A DNA stretch of 61,690 bases, the filler included, from Globobulimina sp. (taxonomy: Eukaryota), in assembly GCA_003354225.1 (NCBI GenBank). It is 22 parts of 22 records of this genome, joined end to end, with 100 filler letters (N's around TTAATTAATTAA, not from the genome) between each part and the next. Parts side by side here need not be neighbours in the genome. Positions count along the whole stretch, not along the records: positions 30,911 to 33,619 come from PIVH01005248.1; 21 more parts are not named here. One strand, given 5' to 3'. Within the stretch, counting starts at the first letter, position 1; each line of letters opens with the position of its first letter. Below, piece after piece: positions 1 to 33,619 of this stretch. A program made the translations under genes and the position numbers. The notes beneath the pieces were generated by a model. The model did not search any database and was not told where the DNA came from. It worked only from the letters and a program-made list of their open reading frames with translations.

Positions 1-2375
1 AACTCGCATATAACTGCCAGTACATACAATCATAATCATAATCATAATCATAATCATAATCATACTCACAATCATAACCATCACCAATATCACCATCATA
101 ACAGTATCAACCACCATAAAAAACAATTACTTCGCATGAACGGACACTATTTAATAAAATGCAAACCTTGTTTTCGGAAAACAATGAGAAACGAATATAT
201 GACACAAAAAGATATTCTATTTCTCATTAAATATTCTCTAAAATTATTCATCCAACACAGAGGTCAATACGTACATCAACACAATAACAGCTATCATAAC
301 CATGAAATAGCACAGTTTCAGTCCAATTTTAAATATTCCAAACCATTATTACCAAACTTACAGCCACCATCACAACATCAACAGTCATTCTCTACGGATA
401 TCGATATAGTTCACTGCATTGAAGAAGATATAAATTGTACCTCATCAGAATATGTGACTGGTAATGGTAAGAATATGGATATGAATATAAAGATGAATGC
501 CGAGGATGATATTGTATCAAAATCAAATGAAGCGTATCATGACAAGAGTAATACGTCCAATTCACTATCAACATTGAGTGGGATACCAATAATTCGACAT
601 AGTCACAGCGACAGTAATGATGACATTATTACTCATGACATTAAATCTGATGTAAAATCTATAAAATCTACGAAATCCAAGAAATGGAACAAAAAAAAAG
701 AATTAAAACAGGAATTGAATAGAATACAAAAAGATTACAGGTCAATGTTGAAAGATTATAATAATTTGCAAAATTTTATTATTAGGAAAGGTATATACTA
801 TGATCCACTCGCTATAAATAAAGAGAATGCACAGCATCTTAGTTATAATCCATATTCATTGCCGATTAATGGGAAAATACGCAATGTGGATACATTGCAG
901 TTGGAAAATGAGAATTTGTTGATGCAAAATTTGCAAATCAAGAAAGAGAGAGATGAATTTGCAAATAAATATATGTTATTACGCAATGAAAGAAACAGAT
1001 TAAAAACGGAAAATATAAATTTAAAAGCACTTATTCAAGAATTGAAACAAGAAAAGTTGTTAAATATATATGGTGACAAATCAGTATCAAATGATTCCAA
1101 CGCTTCCATTGTTATCCATGATACACCGATCTCTGCGTCGGACGATGATGAGGATGACGACGACGACGATGAGGTGAAAATGTTGCAGCGGATATTACCA
1201 CAAAGTGATAATAATACATTTTATACAGAATTAACGACATTGTATGATATTAAGAGTCTCAATAATAATGAATTAAGGTCCAATTCGTCTGTTTATTATT
1301 ACATAATAATGTTGTTCAGATACATAATTTGCAAAATATAAAGTGTTGATCAAATATTTGTTTTCCAATTTGATATATTTTGCAGATATTAATCTGAATA
1401 AACATTATAATATTAACTAGCTTGCCAGAATTGGATGAAAATGAATATGACTCTGAAGAAGACACAGCAAAGAAACATACCTCCTCTATATTGGATATAT
1501 TAACATATAAAAGGAAATCAAACAAAAAACAAACAGTGCAAAGAGGTCGAGGTCGAGCTCGCTCCCAATCCAATTCTTTATTGCCAGTAAACAGTGTGTT
1601 TGAGTTACGGAGAGAGGAAGACGTAATATTACAAAATGAATTTGATTTATTTCGGTTATTAATTGATGATAGAAATGACGAAGAAACGTTAAATTTAAAC
1701 AGTGTCATCAAACGAAGGCGCGGTTCTTTTAAAATTATTAATTATTTAGGTATTGATGCATTAATTGATCATGTTACTTCGCCCAAAATCTTTAATATTG
1801 AAACGTTGTCAAATTTCTTACCGTTAATATTATTTAAAGCGAGTAAATTTGAAAAAGAAATTCAAACAAAAACCAAAACAAACAAACCAGCGTCAAAAAC
1901 CAATTATGCATTAATATTAATATCGAGGCTCTCGAAAGTAAACAGGTTATGGCAAAATGATGATATTCGACAAAAGTTGCAGTTTCTATCAAATTCATTT
2001 TGTAAACACGATAAGAATGCGAAGCAAATTAAAAACATATTTAATAATTCTTATAAAATATATCAAAATAAAGTGAATAAAAATGCATCAAATAGCAATG
2101 GTAATGGTTATAGTAATGATTTGATTATTTTTTGGCAAAATATTATGAATTTAACGGAGAACGAAGCCCAAAATGTAGATTATAATTTATTTTATCGTGA
2201 TCCAGTCATATCAAACTATCCGCCTTTACGTAGAATAAAAGTATGTCGCGAGCTAAAATCAGCAAATAAACCGATTTTATGCGAGTTATGGGTTGAAAAT
2301 GAAGAATATAAAAATAATTCTGAATTAAACTTATCGTATATTGTTTCTGTACATTGTAATAGGAATGAATTATAA
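1..2375 (+). CDS. Partial multi-exon low-complexity/coiled-coil protein; last exon weakly resembles the lead-in to a PI3/PI4-kinase-like domain
   Basis: Frame 1 is open from base 1 (His-Asn repeat) to 1341 and a second ORF runs 1422-2375, separated by AT-rich intron-like DNA ending AACTAG. KSANKPIL resembles the PI3K S-x-x-x-P motif, but no GDDLR motif is visible. Confidence 0.5.
28..80 (+). repeat. (AATCAT)n coding hexamer repeat
   Basis: Tandem AATCAT units encoding Asn-His. Confidence 0.85.
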
Positions 2376-2711
2376 AAATGTAATGCAAATATATACAAAT
2401 TAAACATATTACATATACATACAATTGAATTGGTAATCGGAATATAAATTGTTGCGAAGATTGTGGTACTTTCCATGGTATGTTACACTGCTTTCTAGGG
2501 AATGTAATATGATACACCTCCCAACTGGCTACAGTGTGTAACATATCTTTAACTTTAATCTTTTGAGCAGTAAATTGGATGATTGGTTTATTTGAAATTG
2601 TCATAATTAATGCTTTTTGATCAGCAAAATCTAACTCTTCAATAAATTGCGCATTTACGCTGTCCAAACTCATTAAACTCAAATTATCCGTCCTCGTATG
2701 TTGTGCAGGGG

Positions 2712-2811
2712 NNNNNNNNNNNNNNNNNNNNNNNNNNNNNNNNNNNNNNNNNNNNTTAATTAATTAANNNNNNNNNNNNNNNNNNNNNNNNNNNNNNNNN
2801 NNNNNNNNNNN
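2712..2811. other. Artificial contig-joining spacer (first of 21 identical spacers, recurring every ~2.81 kb; last at 58885-58984)
   Basis: N44-TTAATTAATTAA-N44, with stops in all six frames. Contig lengths fall monotonically from 2711 to 2706 bp, so neighbouring contigs are unlinked. Confidence 0.99.
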
Positions 2812-4924
2812 TATTTTCAATAGTTTGCGCCAACTCATCATCAAATTGCAATTGTTGATATTTGTCCTCATTCTCTTCATTTTCATCATTTTCTTCATTT
2901 TTGCCTCGAATTTCATTCATATTTTCATTCTTTTGATGATTAACATTATGCTCAATAATATGAACGTTGCTATTTTTTGTTTCCCCTTCATTTTTATCTG
3001 TAATTTTATCCACATCCATATGCTCCTCATTATCATCCATATTGTCTATAATTTCATTCTCATTTAAAATATCAATCTCATCCAATTTTATGTCATAATC
3101 AGTTTCTGGGATTTCTTCATCATTATTTTCACCCATTTCCTCCTTTTCCTTTTCCTTTTCATCCATCTCATGTTTGCCAGTTTCATCCACTTCTTCCAGT
3201 TCCACTGTGTTATCTGACGCAACAATGATCGCTAATAATTTTCCAATCTCTTTCTCGCTCATAATCTCACATTCAATCTCAGTCAAATCAATCAATACTG
3301 TCTTATGTCTGACATTTATGGCATTACCAATCACTTCAATCTCTAAATTATTATCCTGCGCAAATATAACCTGTCCATATTGCCATTTGTCCCCAACTGC
3401 CTTACAACGATAACGAATATATTCACCACATTCTGGATATTCAACACTTAAATCAATATCACAAGATTTTATTCTCTCTCTTTCTGACCATATTATATGT
3501 GACTCTGCCAATATTTCTTTGTTTGCTTTCTTTTCTGACGATATTATATGTTTTGATTTATTTTCTTCTTTTTTGTCATTCCTTCGCTTTGATTGATATG
3601 ATTTATATGTTTGGGTAACTTTTTTAGATTTCGTTTTTGCTTTTTTTTTGCGTCTTGCTATCATATTAACAGTGGCGGTCTGAGGCAAAATCGAGACAAT
3701 ATCTTGTACCAAAGTAGCAAAATCAGCATCATTATCAGATTCAAATTCAAATTTAATATGTGATATATTATCATAACTCCCATCATAGATTACAACATCA
3801 TTTTTACTCTCAAACTCAATAAAATGAATACAACATTGCATGCTATTCGCATCCGATTCAAATCTAGAGACACCATCCCATAGTACAGAGGCCTCAAATG
3901 ATAAATCGATGTCACATGTTACATACAATAATTTCGTACCAATATGTACTTTAAAATTGCCATCAAAATGTCGCAATTCGTCGGTTCCGCGGCCGGATCC
4001 ATTGTAGATCCATGCTTTTCCAATGTGTTGTAATGTCCACACTGAATTTTCTGGATATATTTGGTCATTATAATCCAATAAAATATCTGCAATATCAATA
4101 TGTTTTGATTCTGTATGTTCGGAGTCGAATAATTTATCATTTACTTTATTTTTGATCAGTTTTTTAATGGTTGCTAATGAAATGGTGGCATCCGATACAT
4201 TTTTGACGTCTGTAAATAATCCCTTATAAAACTGCGATTTTATTTTTTTTAAATAACTAATTTTATTGGAACAGGATTTAAAATGCTGAAAATAGGAAGA
4301 TATCCACTCAAATAATATATTTTGTAGATACCAATCACCGCACCCATTGATTCTATAACCGATTGCTTTGATTTTATTGGAATCCAAATAATATTTTAAA
4401 TCATTGAACGTCATTCGATCCAATAAGGTCTGGCAATGTTTGGTTGACGCTCTGTTTAATACAAAGTTGAAATCATTGTTCAATGCGTTGTCGATAAAGA
4501 TACGGCCCATGGAACAGATGGAAGGCAATAATTTATTATTTCTTTTTTCTTTTTCAGTCCATGATACTAATATTTCCATACATTCCTCATTGTTTTTAAA
4601 TGTATCTGCTGCGCCGCACACCGATTTTGCAAATTTTTTTATTTTTTGATTGGAGGCCAGGTCGATGCTATGTAAACATTGAAATAATATTATCGATCGA
4701 TTTGTGTTTGTGCTACTTTGTGGTTTTTTAACGCGTGATAATTCAGTAAAGGCATTGATTATTCCCGTCAATGTGTTCTCGTCATCACCGGCAATTTCTG
4801 TAGGTTTATCATTTGTGTCTTGCGCTGTTATGGAGGCGTCTAAATTCTTCCACCATTTAGTTCTTTCACTTCTTTTCGCGGTTTGATTAAAAGATTGAAA
4901 CAGTTCAGCGATATCTTGTGACAT
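2812..4924 (-). CDS. 3'-truncated >700 aa protein; N-terminal half resembles the SYCP2 ARM-like plus PH/Spt16M-like module, followed by a basic patch, a possible Tudor-like segment and an acidic tail
   Basis: Long uninterrupted ORF. IGYRINGCGDWYLQNILFEWI resembles the SYCP2 G-x-R-I-x-x-x-G-D-Y-x-L-Q-x(4)-E motif as I recall it, and a beta-rich segment follows. Confidence 0.55.
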
Positions 4925-30910: not shown

Positions 30911-30951
30911 GTTGAACTGAACCGCTCCGCGGTAGTTTTTTTCCGTTAGAC
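30911..30951 (+). other. Right half of an attC-like recombination site (truncated by contig start)
   Basis: Hairpin AACT-GA-ACCGC-TCC-GCGGT-AGTT with bulged bases, followed by the GTTRRRY core GTTAGAC (30945-30951). Confidence 0.6.
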
Positions 30952-31048
30952 ATCCAAAAAACTCCAGCCATCATCTCCTATTTACTACCCTTGTAAAAAA
31001 ATATAGTTTACCTCCAATGTAACCATTATTTATTAACCATTTTTAACA

Positions 31049-31055
31049 AAGGAGG
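31049..31055 (+). promoter_or_regulatory. Shine-Dalgarno site
   Basis: AAGGAGG six nt upstream of ATG 31062. Confidence 0.85.
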
Positions 31056-31061
31056 CAAACT

Positions 31062-31934
31062 ATGTCAGAATTACGTACCAGAATGATCAGAGACATGCAA
31101 CTGAGGAACTTTGCACTATCCACTCAAGAGGCTTATCTCAGAGCTGTAAGAAATTTAGCACGGCATTATCGCAAATCACCTGATCAGATTACCCAGCATG
31201 AGGTTGAAGACTATCTTTTATACCTCAAGCATGACCGAAAGGTGAGCTGGAACACATGCAATGTTGCTGTATGCGGCCTGAAGTTTTTCTACAATGTCAC
31301 ACTGGAAAACAAAGCCATAGCTCTGGAACTGCCGCCGGCAAAAACACGTAAAACCCTTCCGGAGATATTAAGCAAAAAGGAAGTAAAGAAAATCATCAAT
31401 TCAGCAAATAACCTTAAACACCGTATTGTCTTGATGACAACCTATTCAGCAGGGCTTCGGGTAAGTGAAGTAGTCCGGTTGAGACCCGAGCATATCAACA
31501 GTGAGCGGATGATGATCCGGATTGTTCAGGGTAAAGGCAATAAAGACAGGTATACGGTTCTGGCGGAATCGCTTTTAGAAGAGCTCCGTCAATACTGGCA
31601 GAAGTGCCGTCCCCGCATCTGGCTGTTTCCATCAAAAATTACCGGCCGTCATATAACCATCCGAACTGCTCAGAGGATTTATGAGATTGCAAAACAGAAT
31701 GCTGGAATAACAAAAGGCAGCGGTATTCATACGCTCAGGCATTGTTTTGCAACCCATCTTCTTGATGCCGGATATGACATCCGTAAGATCCAGATTCTTT
31801 TAGGGCATCGCTGGTTAGCCACCACAATGAGGTATCTGCATGTGACCCAAAAGTCCATTTCGTTGGTGAAAAGTCCCCTTGATTCCCACAGACGCACAAT
31901 TTCAAAGGGGGATACCGATGACACAGATAATTAA
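31062..31934 (+). CDS. Tyrosine recombinase (phage integrase N-terminal SAM-like domain plus catalytic domain)
   Basis: Complete R-K-H-R-H-Y set: AGLRVSE, GKGNKDR, HTLRH, LLGH, TTMRY. Confidence 0.95.
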   Translation: MSELRTRMIRDMQLRNFALSTQEAYLRAVRNLARHYRKSPDQITQHEVEDYLLYLKHDRKVSWNTCNVAVCGLKFFYNVTLENKAIALELPPAKTRKTLPEILSKKEVKKIINSANNLKHRIVLMTTYSAGLRVSEVVRLRPEHINSERMMIRIVQGKGNKDRYTVLAESLLEELRQYWQKCRPRIWLFPSKITGRHITIRTAQRIYEIAKQNAGITKGSGIHTLRHCFATHLLDAGYDIRKIQILLGHRWLATTMRYLHVTQKSISLVKSPLDSHRRTISKGDTDDTDN

Positions 31935-33156
31935 TTTTGAGGCATACAAGAAGCCCACTATCGAAGTAGCTGATATTCTGCGGGAACACATTGTGGATTA
32001 TCAGAAGCAATACAGGATGCCGCCGGAACACCACAAAGTGGTGTATGATATTCTAAGCTGCCGCACCCCTTACCTTGGCGGGCATGTTGAAAGGTGTGAT
32101 ACCTGCGGAACTGAACGCCATGCCTATAATTCCTGTCGCAATCGCCACTGTCCCAAATGTCAGGTGTTGACAAAAGAACGATGGCTTGAGGCACGCAAGG
32201 CGGAACTGTTGCCGGTGTTGTATTTTCATAATGTGTTTACTTTGCCCCATGAACTCAATCCGGTTATCCTGTGCAACAAAAAAGTAATGCTGAGTATTCT
32301 TTTTAAATCCGTATCCGCAACCCTTCTTGCGTTTGGAAAAAATCCAGAGAACGGCCTTGGCGGCAGACTGGGTTTTATTGCCTTTCTGCACACCTGGGAC
32401 CAGAAGCTTAACGCCCATTTTCATCTGCACTGTCTGGTTCCGGGCGGCGCTTTTAAGCCGGATGAAAATCAGTGGATTTCATGTGAAAACGGCTATCTGT
32501 TTCCGGAAGCGGCTTTATCAAAAGTATTTCGCGGAAAGTTCATGGAATATTTGAATCAGGCGTTTGACGATGAGGAGCTGATTTTTCCGGGCAGTATTGA
32601 AAAAGACGGTACACCAAACGGGTTTAAGAAACTTGTCAATCAGCTATGGTCCAAAAAATGGCTGGTACATATTGAAGATCCCATAGACAGGCCGGAACAT
32701 GTTCTTGAGTATGTGGGCCGCTATACGCACCGTGTGGCCATATCCAATAATCGAATTGTTTCCCTTGAAAACGGCAACGTCACATTTACTTACAAAAATC
32801 GTGAGACCGGTAAAACAGAAAAAGAAATCATTGATGCTGTTGAATTTATCAGGCGGTTTTTACTGCATAGTCTTCCAAAGGGATTCATGCGCATCCGGCA
32901 TTACGGCTTTCTGGCCAATCGCTGCAAAAGGGACAATATCAGAAGATGCCGGAAGTTGCTGGGAATGTCACCTGATCTTCCTGTTGCAGTGGAAAAAACA
33001 GTTCAGGAAATGATGTTTCTGCTTACAGGCAATGATATTACAAAATGCCCATGCTGCAAAAAGGGAACAATGAGAAAGATTGCAGAAATTCCGGAGATGA
33101 CGGGACAAAATCCGTTTGACCTTATTCATTCTCCGGAATTGCGCAATACAGGATGA
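31918..33156 (+). CDS. IS91-family Y2 HUH (rolling-circle) transposase with N-terminal Zn-binding domain
   Basis: CDTC...NSCRNRHCPKC, HNVFTLP, HTW, HFHLH (HUH), YVGRY (YxxxY) and a C-terminal CPCC. ATG 31918 has an AAGGGGG SD and overlaps the recombinase by 17 nt. Confidence 0.95.
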   Translation: MTQIINFEAYKKPTIEVADILREHIVDYQKQYRMPPEHHKVVYDILSCRTPYLGGHVERCDTCGTERHAYNSCRNRHCPKCQVLTKERWLEARKAELLPVLYFHNVFTLPHELNPVILCNKKVMLSILFKSVSATLLAFGKNPENGLGGRLGFIAFLHTWDQKLNAHFHLHCLVPGGAFKPDENQWISCENGYLFPEAALSKVFRGKFMEYLNQAFDDEELIFPGSIEKDGTPNGFKKLVNQLWSKKWLVHIEDPIDRPEHVLEYVGRYTHRVAISNNRIVSLENGNVTFTYKNRETGKTEKEIIDAVEFIRRFLLHSLPKGFMRIRHYGFLANRCKRDNIRRCRKLLGMSPDLPVAVEKTVQEMMFLLTGNDITKCPCCKKGTMRKIAEIPEMTGQNPFDLIHSPELRNTG

Positions 33157-33490
33157 CATTCGTTATTGTTTTCGTTTTAACGTATCCTGTCCGGCAGTGA
33201 TGGTTTCATTTTCTATGAAGCAGTCACTTTCGGACAGGTGTTTTGTGTGATTTTCAAAAAGCTCTGTTGAGAGTGATTGGATCAGTGCGCCAAAAGCGCG
33301 GTATTTTAGAGAAAATTGAGCAACACAATTAACAGAATGGCAAATAAACCCGAGTTAAAAATGACATTTGAAGCAAAATAACGGTTGTTTTTAAAACGAC
33401 ACCCCGTTTAACCATAATAAAATGGAAGAAACAGCTCTTTACAATCCCCATATATACTGATAAGCAACAAATCAGCGTTGTTACGGCTCC

Positions 33491-33619
33491 GTCCAACGGC
33501 ATTTTATCCATCATCCCGCTGAGGGATAACAAAATAATTTAAAATCAAAAATCGAAAAACTGGCTGGGCCGTATTTGTATTTATGTTGTGCGGGACGACG
33601 GATAAAATACTAAACGTTA
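33491..33619 (+). other. attC-like long imperfect palindrome (last bases lost at contig end)
   Basis: RYYYAAC core GTCCAAC, arms ATTTTATCC-A-TC-A-TCCCGC / GCGGGA-C-GA-C-GGATAAAT-type complement (33590-33608), ending CGTTA. Confidence 0.7.

Follow-up and report, generated by a model that had tools for sequence, protein, structure and literature searches.

A recombinase-carrying IS91-family element whose cassette-like ends and insertion sites hint at a link with integron cassettes

The window analysed here is a 61,690-base stretch of the Globobulimina sp. assembly GCA_003354225.1, made of 22 contigs of 2,706-2,711 bp each that are ordered by size and separated by N44-TTAATTAATTAA-N44, and our subject is the mobile element on one of them, the stand-alone contig at positions 30911-33619 (2,709 bp, G+C 0.43). 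This contig is probably one intact insertion sequence (IS) of the rolling-circle IS91 family, from the subgroup in which an IntI/Xer-like recombinase gene immediately precedes that of the transposase, with terIS and oriIS as its two ends and with the transposase driving its movement. Homology limits place the complete element at 30911-33615 on the plus strand (2,705 bp), comprising a left core with a hairpin, the recombinase gene, the transposase gene and a structured right end. It is a new member of the recombinase-carrying IS91 branch, complete and apparently intact. An earlier reading of the contig, hereafter the original prediction, had taken it for a self-mobilising integron cassette that invades attC sites by means of its own recombinase. 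The cassette-like plan that it recognised is genuine, yet it is also the normal IS91 plan.

The original prediction described the gene pair correctly as a coupled tyrosine recombinase and IS91-type Y2 HUH transposase, and domains, family scores and the overlap of 17 nucleotides (nt) between the two genes all agree. The downstream open reading frame (ORF2; 31918-33156, plus strand, ATG at 31918) encodes an IS91-family Y2-HUH transposase of 412 residues, identified with Pfam and NCBIfam. It matched the Pfam domains Y2_Tnp (1.3e-61, 208 bits, cutoff 20.9) and Zn_Tnp_IS91 (2.5e-32, 111 bits, cutoff 26.3), the latter being the N-terminal zinc-binding domain, and reached 441.5 bits against the NCBIfam model transpos_IS91, for which the cutoff is 125. 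The hallmarks of the IS91 family are the HUH motif and a pair of catalytic tyrosines, and ORF2 carries both, with HFHLH at residues 167-171 and YVGRYTHR at residues 265-272 (YVGRY at 265-269). The upstream frame (ORF1; 31062-31934, plus strand) encodes a tyrosine recombinase of 290 residues with the Pfam domains Phage_int_SAM_4 and Phage_integrase, which Pfam, NCBIfam and a structure match place as IntI/XerA-like. Its scores against NCBIfam XerA (archaeal; 199.5 bits, cutoff 220), the integron integrase model TIGR02249 (197.1 bits over two stretches, cutoff 265) and PRK15417 (146.1 bits, cutoff 435) were all below cutoff, so that the curated integron-integrase thresholds were not reached. The closest solved structure is the Vibrio cholerae integron integrase VchIntIA (2a3v, E 3.5e-37). 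The alignment with VchIntIA breaks in two, residues 178-195 of ORF1 (18 residues) standing opposite residues 180-239 of IntI (60 residues), and the IntI-specific insertion is therefore absent from ORF1. The motifs GLRVSE, HTLRH, LGHRW and MRYLH line up with the matching positions of IntI4 and XerA, and we take them to hold the catalytic residues of a tyrosine recombinase. The recombinase gene is kept in nearly all relatives, down to 38% identity. The passages of the preprint 10.1101/542381 that deal with IS91-borne recombinases place them in an "integron-like" subgroup next to IntI and without the IntI insertion. The kinship with a solved integron integrase and this subgroup placement both favour the rival explanation closest to the original prediction, which we consider possible but doubtful. 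According to it, the transposase would make a single-stranded circle, and the IntI-like recombinase would join the folded GTCCAAC-hairpin-GTTGAAC junction of this circle to GTTRRRY cores, including attC R' boxes, attI sites and secondary sites elsewhere. The absence of the IntI insertion counts against it.

The limits of the element were set by comparison with its relatives. A protein-based scan found nine of these, the best with 70-72% identity, in metagenome-assembled genomes (MAGs) of Desulfobacterales, Syntrophales and Planctomycetota, and their DNA has a non-coding block downstream of the transposase gene in common with the element contig. On the right, homology continues to ...CTATACGTT (...ACGTT) and halts 1 nt short of the contig end; on the left it begins exactly at the first contig base, where GTTGAACTGAACCGCTCCGCGGTAGTT aligns to GTTGGACTAAGCCGCTTCGCGGCAGTT in L003 and L004. 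Because homology starts and stops there, both contig ends are true element ends. A wider search with a pattern composed of the invariant right-end box and GTCCAAC matched at least 119 metagenome contigs, as well as 12 of the 401 genomes of one class, for which a reversed-pattern control gave 0 matches; a pattern scan of viral contigs also gave 0. All later counts of right ends, junctions and loci rest on the pattern matches listed. The terminus type GGATAAAACnCTATACGTT is present in 104 of 130 pattern-bearing records and was not found in 26, many of which are cut by the contig end. Among the matches listed, there are 90 distinct right junctions and 22 loci with a left end of the type GTTGRACTRARCCGC-N-GCGG, and full-length relatives measure 2,490-2,708 bp. 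In three contigs (L125, L134 and L138) the right end runs directly into a left end with a single GTT in common (...TATAC-GTT-GAAC...), and L136 begins inside such a junction, TATAC being directly followed by GTTGAAC. Judged by their sequence, these head-to-tail contigs are probably circles or tandem copies. The homology limits and the single-GTT junctions together define the element as 30911-33615 and assign the GTTA at 33616-33619 to the flank. The original prediction had named products joining 33616 to 30946 as a check; joints of this kind occur in relatives, with the left boundary at 30911.

The same end plan extends to more distant relatives. A plasmid blastn search with the element gave just short coding matches with coverage of at most 7%. 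In a tblastn search with the transposase, 416 plasmid records matched, and the top rows often list a recombinase alongside. Four plasmid relatives from four bacterial classes, among them Clostridia, Alpha- and Betaproteobacteria, keep the whole end plan at about 45% identity; their two genes overlap by 8 nt or are separated by gaps of 5-8 nt, and in each of them the left-end trinucleotide recurs directly behind the right end (ATT, ATT, CTT and ATT). L016, at 39% identity, lacks the recombinase gene; its left core and hairpin, which are the same, precede the transposase gene by 136 nt, and its right box is perfectly complementary to the left core (ATTGGAC and GTCCAAT). Its transposase gene contains an in-frame stop.

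The left end opens with the core GTTGAAC (30911-30917, plus strand), which occupies the first seven bases and is conserved as GTTGRAC at the element's first bases in the 22 loci. It corresponds to a terIS-type cleavage sequence and to an R'-like box of the circle junction. A subterminal bulged hairpin, AACT-GA-ACCGC tcc GCGGT-AGTT (30915-30937), was recognised by folding (-6.2 kcal/mol, z -2.2) and by covariation. Its stem is paired in 100 of 105 cells across 21 relatives, the outer pair being A-T in 10, G-C in 6 and C-G in 2, and none of 500 shuffles reached the covariation score. The original prediction was right about the bulged hairpin and misplaced the core: it had taken GTTAGAC (30945-30951, plus strand) as the core that closes the hairpin, but the conserved core lies 5' of it at 30911. 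GTTAGAC itself is not conserved: L003 and L004, which are the closest relatives to possess a left end, have CGTAA----TTTC in its place, with mismatched bases and a gap. The hairpin and the T-run behind it (30921-30943) have an intrinsic-terminator-like score in the element contig, and the T-run is not kept in relatives. In L003 and L004, which come from different MAGs, the similarity extends outward past the left core for about 95 nt (AATATTGAAAACAAGC...ATATGTAAAT, a stretch that includes two palindromes), and only then do the flanks diverge; mobilisation by read-through (one-ended) or a left end of a longer kind could account for this.

The right end begins with the box CTTTACAATCCCCATA (33437-33452, plus strand), which is unchanged in the element contig and five of the protein-found relatives. 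It is followed by a small hairpin ending in GTCCAAC (33491-33497, plus strand), an R''-like box of the RYYYAAC type within an inverted copy of about 15 nt of the left end, and then by a large hairpin (33502-33607, from folding) with 18-nt arms at 33502-33519 and 33590-33607. A linker, TACTAAAC (33608-33615, plus strand), leads from the foot of this hairpin to the terminus; in the alignment of relatives its consensus is nCTATAC and the layout closes with 6-7 nt of linker and GTT. The GTTA abutting the right end (33616-33619, plus strand) lies outside the element and is a target-derived tetranucleotide, as seen from the junction contigs and the diverging flanks. GTCCAAC, the palindrome and GTTA at the contig edge had all been noted in the original prediction, and all of them are present. 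In 87 distinct relatives the site bounded by GTCCAAC and GTT measures 56-130 nt (median 112); its stem begins 0-4 nt past the box in 84 of them and finishes 4-7 nt before GTT in 81. In eight loci (L040, L047, L060, L093, L099, L113, L116 and L119) the GTCCAAC box is separated from the large hairpin by an extra insert of about 23 nt, of the GTTCCTTCGAC.AGGCTCAGGAC type.

Folding of the right end favours one strand. The bottom strand of the element folds with -21.5 kcal/mol (z -4.6), matched by none of 200 shuffles, and the top strand with -17.3 kcal/mol (z -2.3); C.A mismatches of the top strand turn into G.T pairs on the bottom strand. Of 80 distinct right ends, 67 fold more stably as bottom strand and 12 as top strand, with one tie (Wilcoxon p 1e-10, a value that overstates independence since the sequences are related). 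The left core and the GTCCAAC box of the element pair at six of seven positions on the top strand and at all seven on the bottom strand with one G.T pair, and with G.T pairs included the bottom strand pairs 7/7 in 17 of 18 core/box rows and 6/7 in the remaining one. Six of the 18 rows were typed by eye, and the table leaves out L015 and L148 (read as 5/7 on the top and 6/7 on the bottom strand) as well as L006 and L008, which have a degenerate left end or none. Four combinations are fully complementary, namely GTTGGAC/GTCCAAC, GTTGAAC/GTTCAAC, ATTGGAC/GTCCAAT and ATTGAAC/GTTCAAT. The original prediction had counted six of seven complementary positions between its cores, which is arithmetically true for GTTAGAC, but the partner that co-varies with GTCCAAC is GTTGAAC, likewise 6/7. 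Since the box lies within the inverted copy of the left end, pairing is not yet separable from an inverted repeat bound by protein; the consistent direction of the mismatches favours pairing of core and box on the bottom strand. Compensatory pairing, the bottom-strand bias and a junction site with the geometry and length (56-130 nt) of attC all speak for insertion by the recombinase, and against it stand the identical end plan of the recombinase-less L016 and an account of IS91 ends, in the passages of PMC13181058 devoted to them, that already explains the plan.

The target was analysed at 84 of the 90 junctions, after L052, L092 and L099 (doubtful termini) and L125, L134 and L138 (end-to-end) had been dropped. 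The base counts after GTT were A 54, C 10, G 19 and T 1 at the first position, A 3, C 0, G 55 and T 26 at the second, A 25, C 11, G 41 and T 7 at the third, and A 9, C 49, G 8 and T 18 at the fourth. The right flanks thus have the consensus GTTAGGC and diverge past GTT as A, then G or T, then G or A, then C, and left flanks terminate in A/T-rich bases. Strict GTTRRRY occurs at 24 of the 84 junctions, against 6% expected, and the classical GTTC at 10. A further 21 termini from genomes, three of which duplicate earlier loci, have A 15, G 4, C 1 and T 1 at the first position. The targets used pair with the GTCCAAC box at 5.44 of seven positions on average, compared with 4.42 for the 2,809 remaining GTTNNNN sites of these flanks. 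Target duplication is not evident at the junctions, and a conserved GTTN abuts the downstream end as in IS91, the element contig itself displaying GTTA only. Probably because the target GTT[A/G][G/T][G/A][C/T] coincides with the integron core consensus, part of the family lands at cassette boundaries in arrays. The flank consensus and the excess of strict RRRY fit insertion by an integron-type recombinase as well.

Residence in integron arrays was examined with a strict two-bulge attC pattern (box, spacer, 4-6 bp, bulge, 5-6 bp, bulge, at least 3 bp) that requires perfect stems. A scan of 117 distinct loci (549 kb, both strands) found 13 such sites in nine loci, all co-oriented with the element (9/9 loci, one-sided p about 0.002). 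In the right flanks there were 11 sites in 7 of 67, all on the element strand, with none on the opposite strand and none in 10 shuffles. These array sites are textbook-like (for example GCCTAAC...GTTAGGC, 57-66 nt) and stand behind open reading frames on the element strand at cassette spacing. In seven flanks the first attC lies 351-1254 nt past the element's terminal GTT, from which it follows that this GTT heads a cassette. The right flank of L121 has four attC sites in a row, 351-3372 nt past GTT, with open reading frames of 100-293 residues; L083 has two attCs of 108 nt, and L145 is likewise a well-formed cassette array. Looser attC detectors add L053, L123, L139 and L141. Scans of other designs were mixed: a first strict consensus scan gave 11 sites against 11 in shuffles, and geometry-based scans gave 9 against 0-3 and, in another version, 38 against 12-18. 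Cassette arrays are generally rare, and any "enrichment" near attC rests on this rarity and not on a comparison with random contigs. The residence of a minority of copies at cassette boundaries is real, and in this respect the original prediction finds support in 9 of 117 loci, with 13 attCs co-oriented with the element, but most insertions lie outside arrays. The strict co-orientation, with the element's GTT heading a cassette, supports insertion by the recombinase, and the abundance of insertions outside arrays opposes it.

Folded attC sites are not the rule as targets for the family. No split attC body was found in the left flanks of 10 full copies from which empty sites could be reconstructed; at most 4 of 77 right flanks (L074, L103, L032 and L135) open with a complementary-box hairpin; no canonical attC lies within reach of any of 33 loci from 12 genomes of the Desulfobacteria class; and among the loci sampled no full-length copy with its left flank inside an array was found. 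Insertion into attC sites, as originally proposed, is not supported by these results. Two of the three outcomes that the original prediction had itself named as contrary to it come close to what we see, namely a GTTN target as in classical IS91 and a majority of copies not beside attC. The ends themselves mimic attC in part. attC sites have a total length of 57-141 nt, and the junction form of the element, GTCCAAC at 33491 with GTTGAAC at 30911, has counterparts of 56-130 nt in the 87 relatives; it has an RYYYAAC-hairpin-GTT site with pairing cores and folds better on the bottom strand, as attC does, but the two-bulge pattern occurs in 0 of 84 right ends on either strand. This lack of extrahelical bases also weighs on the recombinase as the inserting enzyme.

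The array contexts suggest a further alternative, in which the right end is attC-like enough for the host IntI to place circles into arrays, the element being an ordinary IS91 member elsewhere. The strict co-orientation agrees with it, as does the outcome of a structure-based attC finder, which in L035, L083, L108, L121 and L145 counts the element's right end among the sites that line up with true attCs. IntI needs extrahelical bases to choose the strand, and their absence from all 84 right ends, the confinement of array residence to 9 of 117 loci, and the lack of any intI gene on the array contigs, which are short, make this capture by host integrons quite improbable. That the palindromes arose by chance or are no more than transcription terminators, and that the assembly broke at arbitrary points, is hardly credible and was rejected, because the terminator-like left hairpin with its T-run and the modest single-sequence z scores (-2.2 to -2.3, top strand) are outweighed by ends that match homology limits to the base in dozens of relatives, by the core/box pairing, the left-hairpin covariation and the strand bias, and by a T-run that relatives do not keep.

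The explanation with the best support is that the transposase moves the bottom strand to GTTRKRY-like sites by rolling-circle transposition. The end plan matches the published IS91 layout, L016 and the plasmid relatives, so the ends need no integron logic. The left end, GTTG followed by one hairpin, would be terIS, and the right end, with its box, small hairpin with GTCCAAC, large hairpin, linker and target GTT, would be oriIS. The genes, the ends, covariation and strand bias, the target consensus, the junctions and the array contexts are observed, and we infer which strand is cut and by which enzyme: the transposase would nick the bottom strand after ...AAC at the junction of target and right end, replication would displace this strand up to GTTCAAC at the left end, and the displaced strand would be closed to a circle with the junction ...TATAC-GTT-GAAC.... 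At the circle junction the left core could pair with the GTCCAAC box next to the folded hairpin, and the circle would then insert beside GTT[A/G][G/T][G/A][C/T]. Some family members would in this way land at integron cassette boundaries, always in cassette orientation. The recombinase is at best guess accessory, acting on double-stranded circles or tandem copies. The claim that the element's own recombinase, rather than the transposase, inserts it is not supported: ORF1 lacks the IntI insertion, the recombinase-less L016 has the same plan, and this plan corresponds one-to-one to the terIS, oriIS and flanking tetranucleotide published for IS91.

Several observations weigh against transposition driven by the transposase alone. 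The co-orientation at nine of nine array loci fits a recombinase-type integration equally well, and the target information spans 7 nt, compared with the 4 reported for classical IS91. L016 may be a decayed deletion derivative and not a natural recombinase-less lineage. Both the IntI kinship of the recombinase and its retention in nearly all relatives are unexplained if the enzyme is merely accessory. Finally, end-to-end joints, which would attest circles, were not seen in the likely source run, for which contigs only were available.

In this likely source run (share 0.95) the element contig is covered by two pieces, and there are two other, diverged right-end pieces, one of which reads on as GTT followed by CGGTAATG.... 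This fits a repeated element that breaks the assembly at its ends. The original prediction had explained the contig breaks by repeated att sites; the breaks do fall at true element ends and diverged copies are present, but the left core was misplaced. The four small-share marine and sediment runs gave just short conserved coding pieces of the element, and a promoter scan was uninformative (8 sites against 5.5 expected). As the window consists of unrelated contigs joined together, neighbouring context within it carries no meaning; the contigs adjoining the element contig are unrelated and A+T-rich (G+C 0.28-0.41), with long coiled-coil or low-complexity reading frames. The bacterial-type element may derive from a contaminant or an associated bacterium.

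Many copies in other records are incomplete. The majority of pattern matches are right-end remnants with neither gene, even with 3-8 kb of upstream sequence (within L027-L145, for example L034, L043, L050, L069 and L090), and L173, L174, L176 and L177 are such remnants in genomes. In 26 truncated copies the breakpoints are dispersed over 42-1889 nt from the right terminus with no common motif. As the search pattern sits in the right end, the impression that truncated copies always keep this end is an effect of ascertainment, left-end remnants being unsampled. L173 (G192:C29) and L176 (G350:C14) have near-identical right flanks, GTTATTTTCTTAATGTATAT... and GTTATCTTCTTAATGTAGAT..., in different genomes, apparently an old insertion retained at one locus in two species, as the flanks suggest. 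L002 (about 1170-4340, minus strand) has a truncated recombinase gene, upstream of which three successive, weakly related tyrosine-recombinase genes (24-44 bits to ORF1), resembling a recombinase trio, lie on the other strand; L175 has a similar set. L100 contains a second, partial right-end module about 1,270-1,040 nt upstream of the main motif, whose box reads GTTCAAC and not GTCCAAC; here the module, not the motif, is meant.

IS91 relatives with an integrase gene are already catalogued, and our results bear on the role of that gene and on the origin of attC and IntI. One element unites an IntI-like recombinase, a co-varying RYYYAAC-hairpin-GTT arrangement, bottom-strand folding, a GTTRRRY-like target and occasional residence in arrays, and these cassette-like ends and insertion sites hint at a link between IS91-type elements and integron cassettes. 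The question raised is whether a rolling-circle transposase supplies single-stranded substrates to an integron-type recombinase. We think it unlikely, though worth stating, that recombinase-carrying IS91 elements are self-mobilising proto-cassettes, in which the HUH enzyme would peel off a bottom-strand circle with a bulge-less attC-like junction, and an IntI-like recombinase lacking the insertion that reads extrahelical bases would recombine this junction with GTTRRRY cores. If so, integrons (IntI with attC) and these elements would have a common origin, and arrays would gain a third, enzyme-autonomous class of residents besides IS1111-attC elements and group IIC introns. If the transposase supplies no such substrates, IS91 biology is still widened by a 7-nt target and by a box that may guide cleavage through pairing. 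For annotators, the results are a warning that such right ends can pass for attC sites.

According to the passages of PMC13181058 that treat the IS91 family, its members make no target duplication and insert by a tetranucleotide adjoining oriIS (CTTG, GTTC or GTCC). The same passages describe one or two subterminal palindromes near oriIS, a single palindrome next to the cleavage site of terIS, which is GTTC in IS801 and IS1294, and circles of single- as well as double-stranded DNA in which oriIS is joined to terIS. Each of these traits has a counterpart in our element or its relatives, the palindromes of the element being one left hairpin and, on the right, a small and a large one. The likeness to IS91, IS801 and IS1294 thus comprises the transposase family and its domains, the abutting target tetranucleotide, the palindromes and, judging by relatives, probably the circle or tandem junctions. 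In contrast to these, the element has an extra tyrosine recombinase gene, prefers GTTA over GTTG over GTTC with information up to seven nucleotides (GTTAGGC) instead of GTTC or CTTG, and has a 7-nt box complementary to the left core together with a bottom-strand bias, which are absent from the description in those passages of PMC13181058. With the recombinase-carrying IS91 members it shares the gene pair and its order, which PGAP labels "IS91 family transposase" and "tyrosine recombinase/integron integrase", but it is only about 45% identical to plasmid copies and 70-72% identical to its closest MAG counterparts. ISfinder names for members of this kind include ISSod25 and ISShvi3. The parts of PMC9229058 on this subject report that the variable regions of three Shewanella integrons contain IS91-like elements, naming ISShvi3, and mention IS1111-attC insertion sequences and group IIC-attC introns. 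Apart from the ISShvi3 sentence in PMC9229058, the literature covered, supplements excepted, held no description that we found of how members of this subgroup end, which target consensus they have, whether their boxes pair or whether they associate with arrays.

Compared with attC sites and cassettes, the element has the RYYYAAC-hairpin-GTT arrangement with complementary boxes over 56-130 nt, the better bottom-strand fold, a boundary GTT followed by RRRY-like bases and soon after by an open reading frame, and some copies in arrays in cassette orientation. It differs in that the two-bulge pattern, present in the 13 neighbouring true attCs, is found in 0 of 84 right ends, in a 3' linker of 6-7 nt versus 3-6 nt in neighbouring attCs, in bringing its own two mobility genes and in residing mostly outside arrays. 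IS1111-attC elements use a DEDD transposase and group IIC-attC introns a reverse transcriptase and ribozyme; both are known attC parasites and insert inside attC hairpins. They resemble our element as mobile elements found in cassette arrays in a fixed orientation, but their enzymes are different, and the end of our element replaces or abuts the GTT core, with association to attC in a minority of copies. The IS200/IS605 elements (Y1-HUH) move as single strands in a strand-specific manner, have subterminal hairpins, and use a short sequence 5' of the hairpin foot that matches the cleavage or target sequence. Our element recalls them in that the targets used show closer pairing with the GTCCAAC box than the remaining GTTNNNN sites, but its transposase is of the Y2 type with a zinc finger, and the pairing would be of the Watson-Crick or G.T kind over 7 nt.

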